Source: Candidatus Nomurabacteria bacterium (GTDB lineage Bacteria; Patescibacteriota; Minisyncoccia; Phycocordibacterales; UBA5272). From it: a stretch of 64,000 nucleotides of DNA. Shown piece by piece: positions 15,292 to 62,743 of the stretch; position 1 is the first letter of the stretch, and each line of letters begins with the position of its first letter. Where the stretch lies: contig JARIGQ010000006.1 of the NCBI GenBank assembly GCA_029288775.1, positions 64,120-128,119 on the forward strand, written 5' to 3'. Below the pieces are notes generated by a model, which ran no database searches, was not told the origin of the DNA, and was given only the letters and a program-made list of their open reading frames with translations. Both the position numbers and the translations under genes were made by a program.

Positions 15292-15363
15292 GAAAGCGTA
15301 GTCTAGTTCCTAGACTTGTTGCAATTCGCTAACAAGAGCCACATTTGCAAAGAGAGGGTTCTC

Positions 15364-16503
15364 ATGGAATATCCTGGTAAAGGTGCGTTTAGTAAGTCCG
15401 ACTTGCAAGATTTGATTGCCGCAGAGCGGATTAAGACGCTCCCAGGCTTCGAAGGGAAGCATGTTGGGCCTGCGTCGATTGATATTACCGTCTCAAGCGA
15501 GGAGGTATATCAAGTCTCTCAGCTTTTGCGGCCCAGCGGCAAGCGCCGCGAGAAGGTGAGAGACATGCTTAAAAGCTTGGATGCCAAGCGGGTGAGGATG
15601 GGTTCGGTCCTTGGTACTGGTCACAAGTACGTTGCTAAGGCAACCGTAAATGGTAACTTCCCCGCAGGGTTATACGGGTATAGTAATGCCAAGTCCACAA
15701 GTGGGCGCAACATGTGTCTGTGCCGGACGATCGCCGACGAGGTCGAAGGGTTCGATACCCTTGATCGCCGTTGGGAAAATTGGACGGGAGAAATTTGGTT
15801 GACGATTGAACCGTTTGTGTTCCCTATCGTTCTTACGGATAAGGAGTGTTACGCACAAATCCGCATGTTCGACGGAGATACTCGGTTCCATGAGTCCGAC
15901 CTGAAGAAGGAGTTACAAAAACGAGATTTCCTTTTTAAGCAGGACGGGAGCCGGTACAACTTAGGCGAGCTCGAGTTGACAACAGGTGACGGCACGATTT
16001 TTACCACCCTATACGCGAAGGCGGGTAGGTTGGTGGGATTCAAGGCGAAGCGCACGCTTGAGCCGCTCAATCTGACTGCGCGCGGACTTCACCCAGAAAG
16101 CCATTTCATTCCGGTCTATGCCGAAAAGGACCCCACGGATCCTGATGGGGGAATGGTCACGCTTGAGGCAGGGCATTTCTACTTGCTCTCGACCAACGAG
16201 GTTCTTGATGTTCCAGAGCATCTTTGCGCAGAGCTGGTTGCACTCCATCCGCGCCTTGGATTGTTCTTCTCCCATTTTGCTGGGTTCTTCGATCCGGGAT
16301 TTAAGGGAGTACCTACCCTTGAAGTGACACCCATCATCAGGACTACTTTGCGTCACCGTGAGGCCGTCGGGTGCTTCCGTTATGAGCGGATGCGTTCAAA
16401 GACGGAGTCATACGCGGTTGTCGGTAACTACAGTGGGCAAAAGAGAACCACGCTTCCGAAGCAGTTTCATCTGCCCAGAGATTGGCACGATGCCATGGCC
16501 TGA
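15364..16503 (+). CDS. long-form 2'-deoxycytidine 5'-triphosphate deaminase-like protein (PF06559-like, dUTPase-fold C-terminus)
   Basis: C-terminal HFAGFFDPGFKGVPTLEV matches the HYAGFFDPGF signature of long DCD proteins; 52-55% GC; AGAGAGGG SD 5 nt before the ATG at 15364. Confidence 0.55.
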   Translation: MEYPGKGAFSKSDLQDLIAAERIKTLPGFEGKHVGPASIDITVSSEEVYQVSQLLRPSGKRREKVRDMLKSLDAKRVRMGSVLGTGHKYVAKATVNGNFPAGLYGYSNAKSTSGRNMCLCRTIADEVEGFDTLDRRWENWTGEIWLTIEPFVFPIVLTDKECYAQIRMFDGDTRFHESDLKKELQKRDFLFKQDGSRYNLGELELTTGDGTIFTTLYAKAGRLVGFKAKRTLEPLNLTARGLHPESHFIPVYAEKDPTDPDGGMVTLEAGHFYLLSTNEVLDVPEHLCAELVALHPRLGLFFSHFAGFFDPGFKGVPTLEVTPIIRTTLRHREAVGCFRYERMRSKTESYAVVGNYSGQKRTTLPKQFHLPRDWHDAMA

Positions 16504-16556
16504 AGAGGCAGTAAGAGCTCCGAGAGGGGCTCTTTCTTTTTTGCTACACTGAGCGT

Positions 16557-16976
16557 ATGAAATTGAAAGTGAAAAGATTACATCCACAGGCTAAACTTCC
16601 TACACGTGCACACCATGATGATGGAGGTTTAGATATTTATTGTTGTGAAGAAGTAACGCTTCCTCCACATACTACTGTAAAAATTCCTACAGGCATTGCC
16701 TATGAATTGCCGGTTGGTTATTGTGCATTTGCATGGGATAAGTCTTCTATTGGCGCGAAAGGATTAAAAACACTTGGAGGCGTATTGGATGCGGGATACC
16801 GCGGGGAATTATTCATCCCGATGAGAAATCTCACTAATGAAAGTTACACGTTTGAAGCAGGACATAAAATCGCACAGATGGTAATTCAAAAAGTAGAACT
16901 CTGGGAGGTAGAAGAAGCGCACGAACTTTCTGAAACCGCTCGCGGAGAAGGAGGATTTGGAAGTACAGGGAAGTAA
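16557..16976 (+). CDS. dut: dUTP diphosphatase
   Basis: GVLDAGYRGEL and RGEGGFGSTGK motifs; AT-rich host-like composition. Confidence 0.85.
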   Translation: MKLKVKRLHPQAKLPTRAHHDDGGLDIYCCEEVTLPPHTTVKIPTGIAYELPVGYCAFAWDKSSIGAKGLKTLGGVLDAGYRGELFIPMRNLTNESYTFEAGHKIAQMVIQKVELWEVEEAHELSETARGEGGFGSTGK

Positions 16977-17423
16977 TTATCTTTTACTTAGCTCTCTTAT
17001 TGTGCCTATATATAACTGCTCGTAGGAAGTACCTTGAATGTTCTTATCTTTGGGGCCCAGGTGTACTTCTGTTTTTTCATCAATCCCCATCTTCATAAAT
17101 TGAGGCAAGATTTGTAGCACTTCTTGTCGTACCTTTTCATTAAATGCAAATCCTGCACCTTTGTAGCAATAGAGTCTATTTTCCTGCTTAAGAAAAAATC
17201 CGCGTATGTGTTCTTCTAAAAAACTGTGTAGAGAAGACTCCTCAACCCATCCTTCATCTTTGAACCATTCGATATGTGAACTTTGAATATTAGGAGGAGC
17301 AACTTCAAGCGCTCCATCTTTTATACAGAACATAATTCTCGATGTGTGGAAATCAATATCTTCAGGCCTTGTTTTGAGGAAATTTAAATCTGGAGCATCT
17401 TTCATGTCTAAAGTATAAAGCAC
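16977..17423 (-). CDS. hypothetical protein (host-like composition)
   Basis: 148-aa AT-rich ORF between dut and the GC-rich block; start may be the internal Met (MKDAPD). Confidence 0.4.
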   Translation of the reverse strand: MLYTLDMKDAPDLNFLKTRPEDIDFHTSRIMFCIKDGALEVAPPNIQSSHIEWFKDEGWVEESSLHSFLEEHIRGFFLKQENRLYCYKGAGFAFNEKVRQEVLQILPQFMKMGIDEKTEVHLGPKDKNIQGTSYEQLYIGTIRELSKR

Positions 17424-17471
17424 TTAAAGAAAAAGGCCCGCCAAGGGGCGGGCCTCGACTCGTTGACCTGA

Positions 17472-18533
17472 TCAGTCTTCGAGTGAAAGGATGAATTCGA
17501 CCATCTCCTGGTCACCACGGCAGCCCACGAGGAGTTGCTCCTTGGAGACCAGCTTGGTGAAGTCTCCTTCGTTGGGGATGGTTTTTCGCAGCTGGGTCCA
17601 GACGCGGGAGTAATTCCCCCACGAACCGTCGGGGTCGCCGTCCTCACGTGGGCGCACCGGGTGCTGCAGGGGAGACATGTGCCCATTCCCTTTCAGGTCT
17701 TGGGCCAGTTCGAGATCCTTCGCGAGTGCCCGGACGCCGTTATGGGTCAGATAGCTGGTCCGCGCGCATTTGCCGGCGGAGGCCCATGCGAGAACTCCTT
17801 CTTTCGGTTCCTCGGCACGGTCTTCCGGACGTATGTACGGAAGGTGCCATTGCCCGATTTGGAGTTCCGTGGGCTTGCTGTTCATCATCGCGTGAGCGAT
17901 GACGATGCCGAAGTCGTTGGCTTCAGGTTGCGCGTGTTCGCTGTTGCGGAGGCCGAAGAAGTTTCTCCAGTGCGTAGCAGTCACGATGACCGTGTGGAAC
18001 GAGTAGGGCTCGATCACGCGGTTGGCATGCTGCTTGTGGAGGCCTTGGTCCTGCTCGAACAGGAAGTGGGAGAGTCCGTACTTCCGGACGAGCTCGTCCA
18101 CCTGTTCGCACAACCATGCACCCTTGGCTGCCATGCCAGCTTTCTCGCTTGCTGCCAGGATTTCCTTGTGGCCGCCAGCCAGGTAGAACGCCTGGATGAC
18201 GGCGATGTCCCGGCCGACCAGCCAGTTGGCTACAGCCTTCTTCTGGTCGGAATCCGACAGGGATTCGCCGGCCTGCATCCCGGCCTTGTTGACCCCGAAC
18301 GAGTTGGGGACGTAAGGCCGTTCAAGCACGGCGATCAGCCGCTTGATCGTGGGCATGGCGCGCGAGCTTGCCGAGTTGCGCGAAAAGCGCGTGTGGGTGT
18401 TGAACTCTGCGAGGTAGGGTCGAGGAAACTCGACTTCCACCGAGCAGATTCGCGATCCGCGAAAAATGCTGTCGCAAATCATCTTTGCGGTGGCGCTTAC
18501 CTCGCGGTAAACGGACGGCGGGGTATAATCCAT
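17472..18533 (-). CDS. unknown 353-aa protein of the GC-rich deoxynucleotide island
   Basis: about 60% GC; AAGGAGAT SD 5 nt upstream; own terminator. The opposite-strand 345-aa ORF is an R/V/G-rich shadow. No TS, ThyX, radical-SAM or MTase motifs recognised. Confidence 0.5.
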   Translation of the reverse strand: MDYTPPSVYREVSATAKMICDSIFRGSRICSVEVEFPRPYLAEFNTHTRFSRNSASSRAMPTIKRLIAVLERPYVPNSFGVNKAGMQAGESLSDSDQKKAVANWLVGRDIAVIQAFYLAGGHKEILAASEKAGMAAKGAWLCEQVDELVRKYGLSHFLFEQDQGLHKQHANRVIEPYSFHTVIVTATHWRNFFGLRNSEHAQPEANDFGIVIAHAMMNSKPTELQIGQWHLPYIRPEDRAEEPKEGVLAWASAGKCARTSYLTHNGVRALAKDLELAQDLKGNGHMSPLQHPVRPREDGDPDGSWGNYSRVWTQLRKTIPNEGDFTKLVSKEQLLVGCRGDQEMVEFILSLED

Positions 18534-18738
18534 GAGATCTCCTTTTCCGTGATGGGGTGGAATGAGCTGTAACCAGCTTATCTAAATGTACAAGTTTGGA
18601 ATAGCTTTTACTAGATTGACAGAACGCGTGTTCTGTTCGTTTGTGGAGTTTCTTTCTTTTACATACACTCGGATAAAAGTTCTTTCTCTCAAGAAGGAAC
18701 ATCCTATTAACTATGCGCCTGCGGGCGAGGAGAGTGAC

Positions 18739-19437
18739 ATGGCCAAGGCTATTATTGCGATCGAAGGGTCTGACGGCGCCGGCAAGGAGACGCAGGCGGG
18801 ACTGCTTATGAAGTTCCTCCAGTCGCAGGGATATACCGTGGGGACGGAATCATTTCCCCGTTACAACAAATCGGTCGGCGGTATCTTTTTGTATGATGCC
18901 CTTAAGGGACCGGAGAAGGAGAAGTACGCCTTCTCGAAGCTTGATCCATATGACGCGAGCAAGCCCTACGCCATGGATCGTTCGGAGTCCCGCGGCATCA
19001 TCGAAGATCTCGTCGCGAAGCACGATGTGGTTGTCTTCGATCGTTACGTTGAGTCGAACTTGCTCCACCAAGGGGGCAAGCTCGCTACACCTGAAGAGCG
19101 TGTAGAATACGCGAATTGGTTGTTCCGGGAAGAATACGAAGGCAAGCGCGGTATCCCGCGCCCTGACTTCGTGATCTACCTCAAGATCCCGTTCTGGCTT
19201 TCGCGCGCCCGTGCGGAGCGGCGGTCGGCAAACGGCGGCCCCGCACTTGATGCGGTCGAGTCCGACATGGATTACGTGCGTAAGGGCCACGAAGGCGGCA
19301 TCTTCTATGCCGAGCATTTCGGTTGGGAAGTAGTGGAAGGCTTGGAGGACAAGCGCGAGCTCACCCCGGATGAAGTTCACCAGAAGGTGATCCGCCAGAT
19401 TACCCCTCGTCTTCTCGAAAAAGGGATCGAGATCTGA
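18739..19437 (+). CDS. thymidylate-kinase-like P-loop kinase (P-loop present, TREPGGT motif absent)
   Basis: IIAIEGSDGAGKETQ P-loop, DRYVESNLLHQGG (DRY/lid-like); GAGGAGAG SD before the ATG at 18739. Confidence 0.6.
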   Translation: MAKAIIAIEGSDGAGKETQAGLLMKFLQSQGYTVGTESFPRYNKSVGGIFLYDALKGPEKEKYAFSKLDPYDASKPYAMDRSESRGIIEDLVAKHDVVVFDRYVESNLLHQGGKLATPEERVEYANWLFREEYEGKRGIPRPDFVIYLKIPFWLSRARAERRSANGGPALDAVESDMDYVRKGHEGGIFYAEHFGWEVVEGLEDKRELTPDEVHQKVIRQITPRLLEKGIEI

Positions 19438-19557
19438 AGTAACACTATGGAAACCGGCCCACGGGGCCGGTTTTTTCTTTTCTCGACACATAAGGGAATG
19501 ATGTGATAGGGTGTCGTTAGTACATCCGTACTTTTTCTTTTGCGAAGGAGAAGATTC

Positions 19558-20127
19558 ATGAAGGGCAAGTTCATCGTCTTTGGCGGGGTGAAGTCCCCCT
19601 GGCCCACCATCGAGGTGGTTCAGGAACACGTTCGTTCGAGCGGTGTCGAAACCGTGATCACCAGAGAACCTGGAGGTACGCCCTTTGCGGAGAATATCCG
19701 CAAGCTCCTCCTGGAAGGTGATCATGGTGGCGATTACGGAATCGTGCGAAGCCTCACTCGTGCTGCGCGTATCGAACATGAGCGCAAGGTTGTGGAACCG
19801 GCGCTCGAGCGGGGAGAGCATGTGCTCTGCGATTCCACCGACTATACCAAGTTCCACGAATGGGACACGGTCGTTTCCGAGCAGAGCTTGATCCATTCAG
19901 GTTTCGATCGCGAATGGTTGGTTGGCAAACCGACAATGCTCATCCTGTTCACTCCCTCCGAGATGGATCCGCGGCTCAGGACCATCTTCAACAATGTGGG
20001 GTACACGATGAACACAGGATTCATTTCCTGGGAGACTCTTGTGTACTACGTGGATCCCGGCGACATCCATTCGGTGGAAACGATGTTGGAAGCCTTGAAG
20101 GACCATCTTGCTTTCGAAATCGCCTGA
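19558..20127 (+). CDS. thymidylate-kinase-like protein with degenerate P-loop (TREPGGT present)
   Basis: ITREPGGTPFAENIRKLL dTMP-binding motif but FGGVKSPWPT in place of the G-x-x-G-x-GK-S/T P-loop; AAGGAGAAG SD before the ATG at 19558. Confidence 0.5.
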   Translation: MKGKFIVFGGVKSPWPTIEVVQEHVRSSGVETVITREPGGTPFAENIRKLLLEGDHGGDYGIVRSLTRAARIEHERKVVEPALERGEHVLCDSTDYTKFHEWDTVVSEQSLIHSGFDREWLVGKPTMLILFTPSEMDPRLRTIFNNVGYTMNTGFISWETLVYYVDPGDIHSVETMLEALKDHLAFEIA

Positions 20128-20203
20128 TCACTTCTTGGCCACAGCCCCGCTTGCGCGGGGCTGTTTTCTTTTTAATACTCAGCAAATAAGGTAGTATAGA
20201 TGC

Positions 20204-40185: not shown

Positions 40186-40299
40186 CGCTTAACTCCTTAT
40201 CTTAATCTGGAAGCACTCTAGTTCTTTTGATGGCGATTGTCAAAAGCTGCCTTTCGATTTCTCCACAAATGAAAAAACTCCCGCGGGAGTTTTTTCATT

Positions 40300-40686
40300 T
40301 GTGGAGATGGGCGGAATCGAACCGCCGTGTATATCGGTATGAAGCATGCATCTACTGTGCGTAGTTTGCTTTGTATGCCTGTATGCCATAGAAGCAAACG
40401 AAAGCGACATACAGGGTGCATGGATTAGTTCATTGCGCACCTCATGCGGAGTGCGCAACTACATCTGCTGTCATTATGCCGTACTCCTTCCCGCAGATGC
40501 GAAAGGGGACGACACCAGGTCGGCGTAAATTACGCGAACGCTGGAACAAGTCCATTCACGTAAGGTGATGGAATTGCCGCTGCAGTTTTGTTTGCAACAT
40601 GGATGGCAGAATGTTAACGAGTACTCTGCCTATCTCGGCATAGCACATACGTCATGGTCGATATATCAAAGCCAAAGATCATCCCC
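40300..40686 (-). ncRNA. ssrA: tmRNA (ssrA)
   Basis: minus strand 5'-GGGGAUGAUCUUUGGCUUUGA..UCGACC and 3'-GGCGGUUCGAUUCCGCCCAUCUCCA with a G3:U70 acceptor pair; putative tag ORF GCA AAC AAA ...GCG UUC GCG UAA (ANKTAAAIPSPYVNGLVPAFA); starts 2 nt after the smpB stop. Confidence 0.75.
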
Positions 40687-43461: not shown

Positions 43462-43534
43462 GCATCCATAGCTCAGTTGGTAGAGCCGTCGTCTTATACA
43501 CGACTGGTCCCTGGTTCGAGTCCAGGTGGATGCA
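43462..43534 (+). tRNA. tRNA-Ile with anticodon UAU (AUA-decoding)
   Basis: cloverleaf folds cleanly: acceptor GCATCCA/TGGATGC, D GCTC/GAGC, anticodon stem GTCGT/ACGAC with loop cTTATAc, T-loop TTCGAGT; CCA not encoded. Confidence 0.75.
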
Positions 43535-46516: not shown

Positions 46517-48229
46517 TTACCCTTCGTTGTTTTTTGAGGTAATAATACGAATGGTAGAAGTTGAAGTTGCTCCAGAACAGGAAAGTGTAAAGTCTGTAGT
46601 GAAGCTCATCTGGAGTGTTTTCTTTCCAAGCGCTTTGTTGGCTGAAGTAGGGGAGACACTATGGAGAGCGGATGCCATTGCTCGTGAGGCACCATACGGG
46701 TCATTGCTATCGGTGGTGCTTGAAGCGAAGGTGGTATTAATTGATGCCGCGTCCGTGATTTGTGCTTGACTACATGATCCTCCAGTACATACAGGGACTG
46801 CTTTCACTGTACAGGACATAGATGGATTTAGGATAGACCACGTAAAGGTAACTTTGCCACCTTTTTCTACAGTACGCGGAGTAGCGTTAAGTGAGAGACC
46901 TGAGGGTTGGGCATTAGGGCTATAATAAACCACTTTCGTGTCAGTTCCGTTCGTGTTTTCACAAGAATAGCTGTAGTTTCCTTCAGTAGAAGGCAACAGA
47001 TAGTGAACTGCGCCTGTGTAGTTTTGCTTATTTACAAGCGTTACTCCATCACGCGAGATTGAATAGGTTTGAGTGGAGGCATTACATGTAAAGTCGAGAT
47101 AGCATGGAGAAGAATAGTTGCAGCTTAATCCACCGCCGGTAATAGAAGGAAGATTAGGTGCACAAGCATTACCATTCCAGGAAGAATTAGAAGCACAAGA
47201 TACAGTGATGGTTTTTGAATCCAAGACGACATTATTGTGCTTGAGGTTGAAGGTATAGCTACCTGTTCCTTGCAGGTTAATTGTTGTAGCACCGCTATTA
47301 CCTGTTCCGCCTGCTATTGTTCCAAAAGGACTATACCCTCGCTCTACTGTTACTGTGTTTGTTGCGTTCTGCGTTGTCCAGCTGATTGGAACCCCAGAGC
47401 ACGTTGCGCTGCTTGCAGGAATGGTACATGTTGAGGTAATGCTAAGCGATCCAGTCACCGTAGGACTAGATACGGTAATTGCTGTCCACGTTCCGCAATT
47501 ATTAGTTTCATTTGATTCGACAATTACTCCAGCATTAGAAGCTGAGCTTTTATCGGCACAGGCTCTAATATAATAGGTACCCGCTGAAAAGACTTTTTGA
47601 AGAGTTGCAGTATTGTTTGTAGACATTGCAAGCGGAGCATTGAATACAGATGTACCAATATCTGTTACTCCAACCCCGTTACCATTTACGTCTACACTTG
47701 TGGCTTGTTGGAAGAGATTAGTGAATCCGCTTCCCGTGCTTCCTCCTCCAATATTATAGATAGTTGCCGACAGGGTGGTTGTGCTATTGGCAAGACTTGT
47801 GGTAGGAGTAATTCCGCTAGATACAAGATCCGGGGTTGCGCTGACGCACTGAGTTCCATTCCAAACCAAAGGTGTAAGGCAGTCGTTTACTTGGAGAGTT
47901 GTCTGGCCAAAAGCGTCTTGAGCACCGTTTATGTTGTAGTGTCTGCAATAAAAAGTATAACTACCTACCTGTTTAGGTACAATTGAAACACTTCCTGAAG
48001 ATGATGACCCTCCAGCGGTGATCCAGGTAGTGTAAACGGTATCCCCTGAACTAGGGTAATCGGTACTAGGGCTACATGAAAGACCATTAGTTACTCTCCA
48101 ATTTAAAATAGCGGTATCACCCCGGTAAACAGTTTTGTCTGCTGGAAGGGGACCACCTCCTGCAAAAAGCGAAATGGGAAATAACCCTACAACGGTTAAA
48201 AGGAGATATAACCCTATTTTTGTTTTCAT
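46517..48229 (-). CDS. large secreted Ser/Thr/Gly-rich surface protein
   Basis: signal peptide MKTKIGLYLLLTVVGLFPISLFAGGG; 570 aa of low-complexity beta-rich sequence. Confidence 0.5.
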   Translation of the reverse strand: MKTKIGLYLLLTVVGLFPISLFAGGGPLPADKTVYRGDTAILNWRVTNGLSCSPSTDYPSSGDTVYTTWITAGGSSSSGSVSIVPKQVGSYTFYCRHYNINGAQDAFGQTTLQVNDCLTPLVWNGTQCVSATPDLVSSGITPTTSLANSTTTLSATIYNIGGGSTGSGFTNLFQQATSVDVNGNGVGVTDIGTSVFNAPLAMSTNNTATLQKVFSAGTYYIRACADKSSASNAGVIVESNETNNCGTWTAITVSSPTVTGSLSITSTCTIPASSATCSGVPISWTTQNATNTVTVERGYSPFGTIAGGTGNSGATTINLQGTGSYTFNLKHNNVVLDSKTITVSCASNSSWNGNACAPNLPSITGGGLSCNYSSPCYLDFTCNASTQTYSISRDGVTLVNKQNYTGAVHYLLPSTEGNYSYSCENTNGTDTKVVYYSPNAQPSGLSLNATPRTVEKGGKVTFTWSILNPSMSCTVKAVPVCTGGSCSQAQITDAASINTTFASSTTDSNDPYGASRAMASALHSVSPTSANKALGKKTLQMSFTTDFTLSCSGATSTSTIRIITSKNNEG

Positions 48230-48314
48230 CTACTTAGTATAGCTGTGCTCTTTAATAAAAAAAGAGCTCAATTAACAGTTGTCTGTCAATTGAGCTCTTT
48301 GTGATTGCTGCTGG

Positions 48315-48980
48315 TCAATTGCTAAAGGCCCTGATCAGTCGGATGTCTTCATCAGCAGCGCGCGTACCGGCGCGCACCGTGATTGCATTTCCGGTCGTCG
48401 GTTGATAGATGGCCGCAGTCCTGGTTTCGTTCGAAGAACCCAGGCCGGCGTACACCCAGCTGCCGTCCGAGAGTTGAACCCCGGTCGTTCCGGCAATTAC
48501 GACGCCATTCACTGTGATCGTCACTGATTCACCGAAGTTGAAATCGGTTTCGGGTCGTGTTGTTCCCTTGAAATCGAGAAACTTGTTGGTGCTTGGGTCG
48601 AGCCGGACGTCCACCATCTGGTTTGTAGTGATCGAAGTGCATTTTATCTGGCGCGTACCGTCATCCAGTACGGTGTTGTCCTTGAGGGTTCCGCAGTTGA
48701 TGAACGGTCGGGTACCAGCGAAGCTGGTACCGTTCACGACAGGGGTGTAATCCCCCGGCGTTTTCCCCAGCCTGTACAAATACCCCCCAGTCCAAATCCC
48801 GTAGACGACCTCCTTGTATTTCGCCACGGGCACCTGGGCGGTGGAGTTGGATGTCGTGTCCGTCGTGGCAGATGCCGTTGACGGTGTCGATGCTGAGGGC
48901 GCGGAACCTCCGCCACCTCCGCCGCATGCAGCGAGGGCTAGAGCGGCTGTCGCCGCCAAAATCACGAGGATGTTCCTCAC
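48315..48980 (-). CDS. GC-rich lipoprotein (GTG start) inserted into the 5' end of a host gene
   Basis: lipobox LALAAC-GGGGGG; GAAGGAGAT SD 5 nt before the GTG at 48980; about 58% GC; the upstream in-frame AT-rich 45 codons reaching 49115 are paralogous to the N-terminus of 49160..49732. Confidence 0.5.
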   Translation of the reverse strand: MRNILVILAATAALALAACGGGGGGSAPSASTPSTASATTDTTSNSTAQVPVAKYKEVVYGIWTGGYLYRLGKTPGDYTPVVNGTSFAGTRPFINCGTLKDNTVLDDGTRQIKCTSITTNQMVDVRLDPSTNKFLDFKGTTRPETDFNFGESVTITVNGVVIAGTTGVQLSDGSWVYAGLGSSNETRTAAIYQPTTGNAITVRAGTRAADEDIRLIRAFSN

Positions 48981-49159
48981 GAGTATCTCCTTCTGCCCGA
49001 GAGGGCGGTTGGTGTGAAAATGCGAATGAGGGTGTCCAGTTTTCTTTTGGTCTTGCAACCAAAAACCAAAAGGACTACCTTTTATTATTTTGCGCCATTT
49101 TTTTGACTTTGTCAATTTTTCTAATAATTATGTAAAGACACTGAAAATGGTATGTCAGT

Positions 49160-49732
49160 TTAATTGAAATACACTTGTACAGATGGTGCTGGGGGTGGTG
49201 AGGGTGGAGTATAACAGCTTACAGAAGCCTGATTTGCGGGTCCAAAGGAATTAAGATATCTATTGTATCCAGCATATGAATCATAGAAAGATTTACACTG
49301 AGCCCAAGCTTGAGCATCCGTACCAGCTGGAATATTTATTGTAGGATAAGATCCATAATTGATGAGCCATACGCTACATGTCCATGCGGATGCATAATAT
49401 TGAGGAGAAGGACTGTTTACACTAGAAGGGGCGGAGTTATATCCCGTGCCGGCAAGATACCACGGCAAGTTTGAACCTTGAGGGTCGATATGATAATAGC
49501 CGCTTTCGCAGCTTGCTGGTACTACTGAACCTGCTTCTTTACCTAAAGCAGAATGTTCTACAAAGGAAAGTTCTCCAGCAGGTACGTTTCCTCGCGTAAT
49601 AAGGAAGGTTGCAATAAGAATAAAGCAAGAAACAAAAAGTGCGCCTATAATTTTATAAGGGCCTTTATGTGTATGGAAATGGCTATGAATATGGCTCCTG
49701 ATACGTTTCATACTATAATCGTACCACGTCAA
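49160..49732 (-). CDS. membrane-anchored hypothetical protein with HSHFHT N-terminal motif
   Basis: MKRIRSHIHSHFHTHKGP + TM + Pro/Ser/Tyr-rich extracellular part. Confidence 0.4.
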   Translation of the reverse strand: MTWYDYSMKRIRSHIHSHFHTHKGPYKIIGALFVSCFILIATFLITRGNVPAGELSFVEHSALGKEAGSVVPASCESGYYHIDPQGSNLPWYLAGTGYNSAPSSVNSPSPQYYASAWTCSVWLINYGSYPTINIPAGTDAQAWAQCKSFYDSYAGYNRYLNSFGPANQASVSCYTPPSPPPAPSVQVYFN

Positions 49733-49759: not shown

Positions 49760-50512
49760 TCAGTACCCTTTTTGCTGAATGAGTTGTAAATTGGAAGCTA
49801 TTGATGATTTAAATCCGTCTAGCCCTTGAGCGTAGATTCTCGGATCGTTCCCCGGATAGGACTGAGCCCAGAGTTCTGGCGTGTATGCGTCAGTAATCCT
49901 TTTTGCATTCTCAAAGGCTGTTTTTGCTTGTCTGTATTTCTCCTTATTCATCAGAAGTGTGCCGTACATATTTTGAATCCATGGGTTATCTTGGCTGTGA
50001 TCCAGGATGGGTTGTATGGTAGCTAATGCACCGTCTATATCTCCTATTCGAAATTGAAGCCATGCTTTATCGTTCCTTGCTGCCCAACTCATAGGAGCGG
50101 CATCAATGAATTTTGAAAATGCTTCAATAGCTTCTGGTTCCCGATTAAGATACCCATACGTAAGCCCTAAAATATAATAGGTGCGTACATTGTCAGGGTA
50201 TAAAGCTAATTCTTTTTTGGCCTCTTCTAGAGATTGCTCTAGTTTGCCTTGTATAAAATAAGTTCGCGAAAGCTGATAGTGCGCAAATGCTACAGGAGTT
50301 CCAAATACCGGATACGCTGCGTTTACAAAGAAGAATTGTGCAAAGGTAATATTATAGAGTGTTGAGTAGGTACCAAAAAAAGTATTTCCTAAAGCTTGCG
50401 AGAGAGGGGATTGAACATATAAAAAGAGGACTATTAAAAAGATAGCTACAATACTTTTTAATTTGAATAATTGAAAATACTTCATTTGGAATAGAGGAGG
50501 GTATTTCGCCAA
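49760..50512 (-). CDS. TPR-repeat protein with N-terminal membrane anchor
   Basis: TM then TPR-like repeats (AYP..G, YYILGLTYGY, AIEAFSKFI...). Confidence 0.5.
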   Translation of the reverse strand: MAKYPPLFQMKYFQLFKLKSIVAIFLIVLFLYVQSPLSQALGNTFFGTYSTLYNITFAQFFFVNAAYPVFGTPVAFAHYQLSRTYFIQGKLEQSLEEAKKELALYPDNVRTYYILGLTYGYLNREPEAIEAFSKFIDAAPMSWAARNDKAWLQFRIGDIDGALATIQPILDHSQDNPWIQNMYGTLLMNKEKYRQAKTAFENAKRITDAYTPELWAQSYPGNDPRIYAQGLDGFKSSIASNLQLIQQKGY

Positions 50513-52415: not shown

Positions 52416-52524
52416 AGGTCTATTGACTTTTTATTAATAGTATGCTATATTTCAGATGGTATGTTTGGGCAATTCCGCCCGTTTCGTCAACCGGCGCATT
52501 AAGCGCCACAACCAGGAGTGTGTC

Positions 52525-53004
52525 ATGATTTCTCGCATGTTGTCCCTGATCGTGGCGTGCGCTTTCGCGTGCGTCTCCGCTTTCGCTCAGTCAGGCGAAG
52601 ACACCAAGGCCTCCGGCGCCGCACCCGCTTCGGTGGAAACAACGGTGAACAAGAACCCGCTGCCGATCGTAAGCACCTATTACATGAGTTCAGGTGCGAG
52701 AACTGGGGTGGACATCCGAATTTCTCCCATTCCCAACGCAGAAGGTGTTCCGAAGGCGAAGCTCTACATGGGTGGAGCAACATGGATCCGTTGCCTTTAC
52801 GGCGAAAAAGAAGTCACAGCAAGAGAGGAGGGCGATAAGTTCATCCTCCAAACCGAAGGTGGCTACCCTGCCAACCTTTCTGGTAACGAAAGTTACTGTC
52901 GTGGATTGACTGTGAAGGTCACGCTTCCCCGAGGGGGTGGACTTTCCGTTATCGATTTTACTTCGACGGAAGGGGGAGGTTCTCGTGCTACCTTCCGTTA
53001 CTGA
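52525..53004 (+). CDS. GC-rich secreted protein
   Basis: signal peptide MISRMLSLIVACAFACVSAFAQ; about 57% GC; CAGGAGTG SD; terminator at 53014-53045. Confidence 0.45.
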   Translation: MISRMLSLIVACAFACVSAFAQSGEDTKASGAAPASVETTVNKNPLPIVSTYYMSSGARTGVDIRISPIPNAEGVPKAKLYMGGATWIRCLYGEKEVTAREEGDKFILQTEGGYPANLSGNESYCRGLTVKVTLPRGGGLSVIDFTSTEGGGSRATFRY

Positions 53005-53045
53005 ACAGGGGTTCCTGTGAAAAAAGCCACGTTCGCGTGGCTTTT

Positions 53046-53291
53046 TTAATCCCCAGTAGGACCATCTCCTGCAGCCCCTGCATCTCCACCTACACCAGTT
53101 CCCGAGTCTGCACCAGATACACCGCCTTCAGTTCCTCCTCCTGTATTGGTATCTGTTACAGGGACATCAGCGTGCGCTTGTTCTATAGCGGTATTCCCTC
53201 GTGTTTGTAATATAAAACCAAGCACTCCCAACATGCCAAGCAATGTAAGCTTATAAATGCTTTTTATTGCTGAAGTAGTCTTTTTCGCCAT
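53046..53291 (-). CDS. small membrane-anchored Gly-rich protein
   Basis: 81 aa: TM followed by a GG(T/S/D)G-rich tail. Confidence 0.35.
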   Translation of the reverse strand: MAKKTTSAIKSIYKLTLLGMLGVLGFILQTRGNTAIEQAHADVPVTDTNTGGGTEGGVSGADSGTGVGGDAGAAGDGPTGD

Positions 53292-59853: not shown

Positions 59854-60044
59854 TAGGGGTCTTCGCGAGCTTCAGGGTAACTTGTAGCAAACGGAGAATT
59901 TCAGTAGTAAATTGTCAAAGCAAGAGCAGCTGCGGAAGATAGATCAGAAAACTCTCAAATGTTTCTGATTACAAACGTCTTCTGATGACGCTGCAAACAT
60001 TACACACATTGTGCATTTTTGTTTTTCTTTTGTCACACTCTATT

Positions 60045-61592
<1,548 letters not shown>

Positions 61593-61820: not shown

Positions 61821-62234
61821 TCATGCCTGCTTCTTCCAGGGTGGGGGAGGGGCAATTGATTCCCCGGTGCGATCAGCTGGTTGCTTTTTGAAGAGTAGGT
61901 TGTTATTGCGCAACCGCTGGCCGTTTCCGCGAAAGAGCATCCATACCCGGCTTGGCGGTTTGTACCACAAGAGGCAGCCACAACTTTCCGCCAGACGTTT
62001 CTCGATCACAACTTCGGCGACCGCCCATTTGAGATCCAGTGTCGCTTCCTCTTTTGTTTGGAGGATGTGTGAACCCTGGGTGAATGGGAGATTGTGTGCC
62101 GAAAGGGTGTGGGCCATCGCTTGAAGCTGATCCACGTTGCCGGCAACTGCCCAGCTTGAGAGGCGACGCCTTTTCTGCTGTTCGGTTTCAGTGCGTTCCA
62201 CGGAGTATCTCCTTTTAATGAACGGATGTCTCAT
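61821..62234 (-). CDS. GC-rich hypothetical protein inside the 16S-tRNA-Ile spacer
   Basis: 137 aa, about 55% GC, terminator at 61788-61815. Confidence 0.35.
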   Translation of the reverse strand: MRHPFIKRRYSVERTETEQQKRRRLSSWAVAGNVDQLQAMAHTLSAHNLPFTQGSHILQTKEEATLDLKWAVAEVVIEKRLAESCGCLLWYKPPSRVWMLFRGNGQRLRNNNLLFKKQPADRTGESIAPPPPWKKQA

Positions 62235-62325
62235 TTTCCCTTATGGAGTAAGCTTTTGCAAGGTATTGACTTTTATATAAAAACGTGATATATTATATTA
62301 GTACCCATAACGGAGGAGTTCCTTC

Positions 62326-62568
62326 ATGAACCACCATTTTTCGAAAACGATGACGATCGGTGGAACCGACCGCCATCGCATGAACGCGATGGACTTCGGT
62401 CGCCCGGTGCCGGCCGGCAAGAAGCAGGCCGATTGGTCTGGGGTCATCATTGCAGGAGGGGTCATCCTCTTCCTCGTGGTCCTGGCTCTGCCGACGGTTT
62501 CGGAATCGTTCCGGCAACATACCGGCATCACGGGCTGGGTGGAATCCCTGCGGAATCTCTTCCGCTAA
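62326..62568 (+). CDS. GC-rich small membrane protein inside the rRNA spacer
   Basis: 80 aa with one TM; ACGGAGGAG SD 8 nt before the ATG; promoter TTGACT...; terminator at 62588-62622. Confidence 0.4.
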   Translation: MNHHFSKTMTIGGTDRHRMNAMDFGRPVPAGKKQADWSGVIIAGGVILFLVVLALPTVSESFRQHTGITGWVESLRNLFR

Positions 62569-62670: not shown

Positions 62671-62743
62671 GCGCGAATAGCTCAGCTGGTAGAGCACTCG
62701 ACTGATACTCGAGCGGTCCCAAGTTCGAATCTTGGTTCGCGCA
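62671..62743 (+). tRNA. tRNA-Ile (anticodon GAU)
   Basis: acceptor GCGCGAA/TTCGCGC, anticodon loop cTGATAc, T-loop TTCGAAT; usual 16S-23S spacer tRNA. Confidence 0.85.

Follow-up and report, generated by a model that had tools for sequence, protein, structure and literature searches.

We analysed a 64,000-nucleotide (nt) stretch of a Candidatus Nomurabacteria bacterium genome (assembly GCA_029288775.1, contig JARIGQ010000006.1, positions 64,120 to 128,119 of the forward strand; hereafter "the window"), and in it a minus-strand open reading frame (ORF) of 266 amino acids (aa), 48315..49115, which is GC-rich over most of its length and AT-rich at its 5' end. An initial annotation had explained this ORF as a foreign GC-rich lipoprotein cassette that landed inside a tandem paralogue of the adjacent gene and was left fused in frame to the N-terminal stub of that paralogue. 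In our analysis, the 266-aa "fusion" is very probably an artefact of ORF calling, and 48261..49115 (minus strand) one ordinary promoter-leader-lipoprotein unit, which is a positional orthologue of units in related genomes. The unit would comprise a strong sigma-70-type promoter, a structured leader of ~100 nt, an AAGGAG element, a GTG start at 48980, a 221-aa prolipoprotein and an intrinsic terminator. The 45 extra codons are most likely promoter and 5' untranslated leader, and not translated; they appear as coding sequence because no in-frame stop happens to lie between the TTG of the -35 box and the true start. The features of the unit, all on the minus strand, are as follows:

48315..49115: 266-aa ORF, TTG start
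49087..49115: sigma-70-type promoter TTGACA-17-CAAAAT, matching the consensus at 10 of 12 positions; its TTG is the called start of the 266-aa ORF
48981..49080: predicted 5' untranslated leader of ~100 nt, from a putative transcription start
about 49079..49031: 5' stem-loop of the leader, from folding and inverted repeat I3 (core arms 49072-49062 and 49054-49044)
49011..49034: "His-rich motif" CAC CCT CAT TCG CAT TTT CAC ACC, in frame HPHSHFHT, in the leader and inside the GC-rich block
49006..48995: small leader hairpin GCCC-TCTC-GGGC
48992..48987: AAGGAG element
48315..48980: coding sequence of the lipoprotein from the GTG, 221 aa and a stop codon; GC 0.58, GC at third codon positions (GC3) 0.67
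48924..48980: signal peptide MRNILVILAATAALALAA and lipobox Cys19 (L-A-A-C), then a Gly6 linker, as read from the sequence
48318..48821: conserved all-beta C-terminal domain of ~170 aa, consensus YTDKVYAxWT ... DGWYY ... FQxD..G..VK.GTF..DG.I..L.SYSN
48261..48300: AT-rich intrinsic terminator 3' of the lipoprotein gene, a hairpin (inverted repeat I1) with a T-run

Across the ORF the GC content jumps sharply from ~32% to 55-58%, and in a likelihood fit with three segments the GC-rich block spans 48327..49040 (GC 0.37 / 0.58 / 0.36). The fit confirms that the composition changes abruptly, but moves the upstream breakpoint to about 49040 (2-lnL support interval 49005-49061), ~55 nt upstream of the position near 48985 that had been proposed. 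The supposed AT-rich stub is therefore AT-rich only in part: 49115..49041 has 32% GC, but 49040..48981 already has 55%, and the His motif (49034..49011) that was assigned to the stub lies in the GC-rich block. The GTG is where it had been described; it is located 3' of GAAGGAGATACTC, which contains the AAGGAG, and it opens a GC-rich (0.58) gene for a 221-aa LALAAC lipoprotein that begins MRNILVILAATAALALAAC-GGGGGG. The 45 in-frame codons 5' of this GTG read MTKSKKWRKIIKGSPFGFWLQDQKKTGHPHSHFHTNRPLGQKEIL, in which the motif-bearing part is ...GHPHSHFHTNRP.

The N-terminus of the 221-aa product has the charged n-region MRN and the hydrophobic stretch ILVILAATAALALAA of a prolipoprotein signal, both conserved across family members, and its L-A-A-C19 fits the lipobox pattern [LVI][ASTVI][GAS]C; A(A/G)C-GGGG is found in most members. 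From these features lipidation of Cys19 is predicted. The prolipoprotein would be exported by the Sec pathway, lipid-modified at Cys19 and anchored at the cell surface, and a Gly/Ser/Thr-rich linker would carry the beta-rich C-terminal domain.

Promoter, leader and gene slot

Promoter, leader, AAGGAG element and start codon could be aligned collinearly over eight loci, with the window GTG opposite the ATG of the seven relatives. Among the related loci, which we refer to by number, L001, L002 and L003 were reached via homologues of the 183-aa protein encoded next to the lipoprotein gene, and L011 via one relative of the lipoprotein itself. The relatives have in common a promoter of the form TTGACA-17-TA(A/T)AAT and, after it, a leader that measures ~100-215 nt, along with a small GC hairpin (GCCC-loop-GGGC, with the variant GTCC-GAAA-GGAC in L011) and AAGGAG situated 6-8 nt 5' of the ATG. 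The promoter counterpart is aligned in L001, L002, L003 and L013, is partly covered in L012 and L018, and has TATAGT in L019. On folding, the leaders form a long 5' stem-loop whose beginning is the predicted transcription start, and an alifold consensus of four sequences has compensatory changes in 6 of its 15 pairs. The leader matched no Rfam family. A transcript from the promoter at 49115..49087 would begin near 49080, and the TTG at 49115 could consequently not be translated from that promoter. Several family members in the databases also carry N-terminal extensions that spell the promoter (SLTKQKKKSII...), which indicates that such over-extension is recurrent. The promoter spacer contains a run of five to seven A residues (A5-A7), both in the window (49098..49104, minus strand) and in L001, L002, L003 and L012.

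The genes on either side of the unit, which serve as anchors of synteny, are on the same strand:

46517..48229, minus strand: CARDB-domain surface protein, downstream anchor
49160..49711, minus strand: 183-aa membrane-anchored protein with N-terminus MKRIRSHIHSHFHTHKGP, one transmembrane helix and a Cys-rich exported domain; single copy
49760..50512, minus strand: TPR protein, upstream anchor

The start of the 183-aa gene is most likely the ATG at 49711 (as in NCBI protein P0003), and not the TTG at 49732. The order TPR protein, 184-aa-type protein, GC-rich lipoprotein and CARDB protein is kept in L001, L002, L003 and L011. The lipoproteins in this slot also begin alike (MRKTLVTIAAVAALILTAC-GGGGGGG in L001, ...AIGLTAC-GGGGGGG in L002 and ...AFIAGC-GGGGGGG in L003), and the architecture of signal peptide and Gly linker is found in L001, L002, L003, L010-L013 and L016-L019. 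These loci were also the place to look for an uninterrupted paralogue, and the slot in which it would be expected holds the lipoprotein instead. By tblastn, there was no second copy of the 184-aa-type gene in the window or in any related locus. The genes around the unit encode TPR, CARDB and hydroxylase proteins, and we found no repeats flanking the borders of the GC-rich block, and no mobility genes or tRNA targets at the locus. Judged by gene order and alignment, the lipoprotein gene is a positional orthologue and not a new insertion.

The neighbours have diverged far less than the lipoprotein. For the TPR protein, identity is 64-70% within the group of the window, L001, L002 and L003, and 44-51% with that of L011; for the 184-aa protein it is 51-58% within this group, with partial N-terminal matches only to L011. 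Between lipoproteins, alignments are restricted to the signal peptide, or to the C-terminal domain with 27-36% identity, and the domain make-up is mosaic. On these comparisons the mature part of the lipoprotein is mosaic and far more diverged than its neighbours, the pattern to be expected if a surface protein diversifies rapidly.

When 1.84 billion representative sequences were scanned in full with HMMER (E <= 1e-3), 30 proteins were recovered, namely the query and 29 relatives with phmmer E-values from 6e-21 to 7e-4, most of which cover about residues 50-221 of the query. A word-based search with the 266-aa ORF had found only the ORF itself, an exact look-up of P0001 on contigs gave no match, and a metagenome scan with a narrowed lipoprotein alignment yielded three loci. 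Members share the ~170-aa C-terminal domain and usually the AC-GGGG lipobox and linker, while their middle domains vary; conserved columns of the alignment include a Trp, two Cys, a Pro, a Gly and a Phe. An AlphaFold2 model built on the family alignment is all-beta, with a mean predicted local distance difference test (pLDDT) score of 85.2 and core blocks at 86-97. Foldseek found nothing convincing for this domain in the PDB (best E 0.016, TM-score <= 0.26, vague beta-propeller-like matches), so the family has a confidently modelled fold without a PDB match. Matches in a PDB profile search and in NCBIfam were confined to the lipoprotein-signal region, and Pfam and NCBIfam hold no family for the lipoprotein, for the 183-aa protein or for the secreted protein at 52525..53004 described below. 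As judged from these alignments, the window gene is a member of a small, uncharacterised family of Patescibacteria surface lipoproteins in a conserved slot, and the modelled C-terminal domain is probably involved in surface interaction.

The 184-aa family (window 49160..49711 and P0004-P0008) is characterized by a His-periodic cytoplasmic N-terminus, one transmembrane helix, an invariant AGSVVPASCES, Cys residues that are conserved, and a C-terminus rich in Pro; Pfam has no family for it. A scan of reference genomes with this family gave solely distant Patescibacteria and partial N-terminal matches, and these more distant Patescibacteria share just the N-terminal ~70 residues. Also at this locus, a 16-nt imperfect inverted repeat (81% complementary) relates 48984..48999 (AAGGAGATA, lipoprotein side) to 48193..48208 (AAAGGAGATA, within the 5' part of the CARDB gene) over a distance of 775 nt; it is probably due to chance.

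The His motif and the open frame of the leader

The insertion into a tandem paralogue was originally proposed because the leader motif, HPHSHFHT, resembles HIHSHFHT at the N-terminus of the adjacent, same-strand 183-aa gene, and the sharp change in GC and the stop-free stretch in frame are also what such an insertion would leave. The resemblance is genuine, with 7 of 10 aa matching, but the paralogy drawn from it did not withstand closer comparison. At the DNA level, the motif regions are identical at 16 of 27 positions (counted by eye), and local alignment of the leader with the 5' end of the neighbour was no better than that of shuffled sequences (64/500; 163/300). When the 183-aa protein was searched by tblastn against the window and the fetched loci, the match at the motif (15 aa, E = 2.6) was not even the best of the chance-level matches. 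The five homologues of the neighbour begin MKLRHHVxxHxxxH, which is His-periodic, and HSHFHT is present in none of them.

The 3' half of the motif corresponds to leader nucleotides (CATTTTC..ACACCAACCGCCC) that occur piecemeal in the leaders of relatives: CATTTT in L002, L011 and L013, and ACACCAA-CGCCC in L010, L018 and L013. The segment preceding the AAGGAG is collinear with that of L011 (CTGGGCA-CAT-CATTTT-ACA-AA-CGCCC; 5/300 shuffles), L010 (ACACTCAA-CGCCC..GGGCAG; 1/300) and L002 (CATTTTCTGCA-ACC-ATCGCCC; 27/300), and ranks 14/300 against L013 and 16/300 against L001. In the same frame, the L011 leader reads HHFTNAR. By this resemblance, the codons CAT TTT CAC ACC AAC CGC CC (H-F-H-T-N-R) descend from leader nucleotides. 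The initial annotation had itself named a His motif belonging to the lipoprotein family as an observation that would speak against insertion, and it is the 3' half of the motif that we find in the relatives' leaders, albeit by pairwise matches that are each weak. The likeness of HPHSHFHT and HIHSHFHT is therefore best read as a coincidence between a leader rich in CAY codons and a His-periodic N-terminus. A true relationship between the motifs, by convergence or by a short conversion, has in our estimation a low probability.

Given that the "stub" is a conserved promoter and leader, that a GC-rich lipoprotein occupies the same slot in four other contigs (L001, L002, L003 and L011), and that a second copy of the 184-aa gene and DNA similarity to the neighbour are both lacking, we regard insertion of a foreign cassette into a tandem paralogue as very improbable.

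Several observations nevertheless weigh against the interpretation of 48261..49115 as one ordinary unit. The NCBI annotation is the 266-aa form. In the six-frame translation of the window, H.H.H.H and HSHFH are found at just the two sites compared above, pairwise BLASTP of the 45 aa against the 183-aa protein gives 7/10 identities with E = 2e-4, and because the two motifs are in adjacent genes, pure chance is an uncomfortable explanation. The pairwise matches between leader DNAs are each short and modestly significant, and the fold of the window leader does not by itself differ significantly from shuffles (z = -1.55). From the -35 box to the start, no in-frame stop is met in the window or in the five closest family loci (L001, L002, L003, L012 and L018). 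Finally, the 16S rRNA lacks an anti-Shine-Dalgarno (anti-SD) sequence, as described below, so canonical Shine-Dalgarno (SD) pairing cannot underlie use of the AAGGAG-GTG start, and an ordinary unit leaves the cause of the persistent GC richness unexplained.

The open frame raises the question of whether the long ORF is real, in which case the lipoprotein would have an N-terminal cytoplasmic extension, made from read-through transcripts of the upstream TPR / 183-aa operon or from a non-canonical upstream start, and the His motif would be translated, functional, and shared with the neighbour by convergence or by an old short-patch conversion. Consistent with this, length differences among the open leaders are multiples of 3, no terminator separates the 183-aa gene from the TTG, the synonymous-type differences between the motifs (among them TCG vs AGC for Ser) resemble conservation at the protein level, and SD-led starts are not privileged in a genome without an anti-SD. 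However, in L010, L011 and L019 the frame is interrupted by stops between promoter and start, L017 has stops 5' of its start, and in L013 the frame is open but shifted. In 6 of 10 loci the start lies a multiple of 3 nt from the promoter, which is not significant (binomial ~0.08), all the more so as the closest relatives cannot be counted as independent. Shuffling a 135-nt leader gives a sequence without stops in 5.7% of cases, and GC-rich genes tend in general to be stop-codon-poor. Among relatives the in-frame peptide is conserved solely in the part encoded by the promoter, whereas the conservation of the leader is of the RNA type, with compensatory changes in its stems. Moreover, the sole upstream start is the TTG within the -35 box, which has the start signal of neither host type. 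We therefore consider a real long ORF improbable.

Conserved translation of the leader was examined as a candidate in its own right and rejected, on the stops in four loci and the in-frame distance in just 6 of 10 loci. We conclude that the open frame is inherited among close relatives and is not a conserved coding feature.

GC-rich genes and start signals

The lipoprotein gene deviates from the rest of the genome in both composition and start signals, and to this extent the initial annotation is supported: its GC3 is high and its start is led by AAGGAG, while most genes have no SD. The deviation is not specific to this genome. In 11 of 12 independent loci, the region coding for the mature protein is GC-richer than its flanks, by 6 to ~30 points (L017 lacks the contrast and L019 has a modest one), with family genes at GC 0.53-0.67 and GC3 up to 0.86, and flanks at 0.27-0.57. 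In these 11 loci the GC-rich block extends from the middle of the leader to the stop codon. The jump in GC is thus of long standing and belongs to the whole family, and no recent insertion into a duplicated host gene left it behind.

Two further explanations turn on the composition. In the first, the slot is a cassette-like hot spot in which the GC-rich block is repeatedly replaced, by recombination or horizontal gene transfer, from a GC-rich pool, so that each allele is a recent import. The mosaic architecture agrees with this (a middle domain is common to L002 and L003, and the C-terminal domain to the window, L003 and L011; the C-terminus of L002 differs), as does the incongruence between lipoprotein similarity (L003-L011 36%, window-L003 27%) and the TPR proteins, which group the window with L003, and the persistence of GC3 values of 0.83-0.86 in deeply diverged lineages. 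However, no flanking repeats or mobility genes are present, and promoter, leader and signal peptide are co-linear and conserved. In a second GC-rich family, that of the secreted protein described below, gene and flanks diverge alike (73% vs 74-81% nt identity between the window and L021), and no member of the lipoprotein family was seen in a clearly GC-matched genome from outside the Candidate Phyla Radiation (CPR), L017 being the one GC-matched context, of unassigned taxonomy. On balance, we hold a replacement hot spot to be a serious but unlikely alternative. In the second, GC-rich reads of another organism would have been joined into an AT-rich contig during metagenome assembly, for which the sharp GC boundaries might be invoked. 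The same arrangement, however, recurs in independent assemblies from different samples (L001, L002, L003, L011, L012, L018 and L021), and the GC boundaries fall on promoter, leader and terminator, all of them functional signals, which leaves such a chimera a negligible probability.

The initial annotation had also pointed to a second case on the plus strand, with these features:

52423..52451, plus strand: promoter TTGACT-17-TATATT with a TG extension, conserved in L021
52456..52524, plus strand: 23 in-frame codons, from a leaderless-type ATG to the AGGAG-led ATG
52493..52507, plus strand: hairpin GGCGC-ATTAA-GCGCC
52514..52518, plus strand: AGGAG
52525..53004, plus strand: GC-rich secreted protein, 159 aa, signal peptide MISRMLSLIVACAFACVSAFA followed by Q; GC 0.55
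53020..53047: bidirectional terminator of the secreted-protein gene

Here the description holds: from a leaderless-type ATG, translation could read in frame into the GC-rich secreted-protein gene, and L021 is organized alike. The ATG at 52456 is 4 nt past the -10 box (TGcTATATT-tcag-ATG), compared with a usual host spacing of 6-8 nt, and is in frame with the ATG at 52525. The sole relative found (P0038 / L021, sample SRR28401841) is 60% identical in aa, with the same flanks and the same promoter; its ATG is 6 nt past the -10 box and is followed by 26 in-frame, stop-free codons. Between the two extensions there are several indels that are not multiples of 3 and that sum to 9 nt, and the frame is kept in both (n = 2). 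The extension peptides are unalike, and both are Arg/Lys-rich. Third codon positions of the gene are 48% identical between the window and L021, with GC3 of 0.57 and 0.71, respectively, vs 0.30 in the 5' flank of L021. Starts of the leaderless type are frequent in this genome, and the long (182-aa) form from the ATG at 52456 may therefore be made; from two sequences only, we would give it slightly less than an even chance. Convergent to the secreted-protein gene, and sharing its terminator at 53020..53047, is a gene for an 81-aa membrane-anchored protein (53046..53291, minus strand). The exported part of this protein is a low-complexity Gly/Thr/Asp/Ala tail that is GC-rich, and the gene has a counterpart in L021 and L011.

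The host background differs from these genes. Almost none of the host genes in the window has an SD, and many have a -10-like box (TGnTAtACT) 6-8 nt 5' of the ATG, for example at 48229, 53355, 26174, 56445 and 57147. L001, L002 and L011 have the same arrangement of starts, with few SDs and -10-like boxes near the ATG. This suggests, as far as start regions can tell, that leaderless mRNAs are widespread. The ribosomal RNA and the other GC-rich genes of the window are listed here:

60042..61592, plus strand: 16S rRNA, 3' tail GGAUUAAUUCAAUG instead of the consensus GGAUCACCUCCUUU; CCUCC absent
15316..16503: dCTP deaminase, in a GC-rich island
16557..16976: 139-aa ORF of host composition, within the same island
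17472..18533, minus strand: ThyX-like protein, AGGAG-led, just under the Pfam cut-off
18586..19437 and 19540..20127: two thymidylate-kinase-like ORFs, in the island
61821..62234, minus strand: GC-rich small gene between the 16S rRNA and a tRNA; no family match
62266..62294, plus strand: promoter TTGACT-17-TATATT of the following gene
62326..62568, plus strand: GC-rich small membrane protein gene with GGAGGAG 5' of the ATG, a transmembrane helix and a GC-rich terminator; no family match

An anti-SD displaced by an insertion was considered and rejected, as there is no CACCTCCT on the plus strand downstream of the 16S end before 63584. Likewise rejected was the idea that consensus -35/-10 promoters are foreign to the host, because promoters of the same type precede the 16S rRNA and other host genes. 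An AAGGAG or AGGAG is located 5' of the start in each of five GC-rich genes, namely the ThyX-like gene (17472..18533), the lipoprotein gene, the secreted-protein gene at 52525, the membrane protein gene at 62326..62568 and L001 7216..7647. The last of these (minus strand, GC3 0.75) encodes a 143-aa secreted protein and is flanked by the thioredoxin and TPR genes; its promoter is TTGACA..TATAAT, GGAG is found 5' of its ATG, and its style is that of both window cases. The dTTP-synthesis genes form a GC-rich (52-62%) island at 15316..20200. At Rfam gathering scores, the window also contains a tmRNA gene (40299..40686, minus strand) and tRNA genes (43462..43534 and 62671..62743, plus strand).

These cases lead us to a speculative idea, to which we attach a rather low probability: Parcubacteria that lack the anti-SD and are mostly leaderless may retain GC-rich genes as a class apart, many of which encode exported proteins, with consensus -35/-10 promoters, structured leaders containing a small GC hairpin, a conserved AAGGAG, syntenic positions, and a high GC3 that persists although synonymous sites are presumably saturated. 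If so, either selection or biased gene conversion would maintain the GC content, or alleles would be continually exchanged with a GC-rich gene pool of partners, and in some cases, such as that at 52456, a leaderless host ATG might capture the gene in frame and so secure its expression. GC-rich AAGGAG genes in apparently leaderless genomes, of which this one is without an anti-SD, are in any event an unexplained pattern.

Comparison with known systems

The window protein resembles bacterial prolipoproteins that are substrates of Lgt and LspA in its positive n-region, hydrophobic h-region, L-A-A-C lipobox and Gly-rich linker after the Cys. The 266-aa ORF, for its part, resembles the familiar over-extension of start codons by longest-ORF calling: the start that was called is a TTG, the first to follow a stop, and lies inside a -35 box, and an AAGGAG-led start aligned with the ATG of relatives is found 45 codons downstream. 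It differs from a simple artefact of this type in that the open frame is also present in the closest relatives, and at 52456 the upstream ATG sits at a leaderless-type position, so that the long form may be real there. On our reading, the public 266-aa product, and possibly the 182-aa one too, carries an N-terminal extension consisting of promoter and 5' untranslated region, and such extensions can mislead predictions of signal peptides and families in CPR genomes.

According to Tsurumaki et al. (RNA 2022, PMC9297842), a subgroup of Parcubacteria has 16S rRNA that lacks the anti-SD, and no more than 48% of Parcubacteria have the motif. The window 16S rRNA, with GGAUUAAUUCAAUG in place of GGAUCACCUCCUUU, is of this kind, and the related loci in reference genomes are all from Patescibacteria; GC-rich genes that retain AAGGAG are, however, not described in that paper. 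In the literature we found no report of GC-rich lipoprotein islets in CPR.

Horizontally acquired gene islets offer a partial parallel, as GC and GC3 of the window lipoprotein gene are far above those of the host and its start is of the AAGGAG type in a genome with almost no SD. Lawrence and Ochman reportedly proposed an amelioration model for acquired genes. In contrast to such islets, the gene is found at the same slot in diverged relatives, where it is still GC-rich (GC3 up to 0.86) and without mobility genes, tRNA targets or flanking repeats, and is therefore not a recent strain-specific island.

A fast-diverging lipoprotein encoded beside genes for surface proteins is a reasonable candidate for interaction with host or phage in the episymbiotic Patescibacteria. 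The vlp genes of Mycoplasma hyorhinis are variable surface lipoprotein genes with a conserved 5' region, and their promoters have phase-variable poly(A) spacers. The window unit is similar in combining a conserved promoter, leader and signal peptide with a mature part that is highly divergent or mosaic, and in having an A5-A7 tract in its promoter spacer. It differs in that there is one copy per locus, with no cluster of paralogues seen, and in that the variation is between species.

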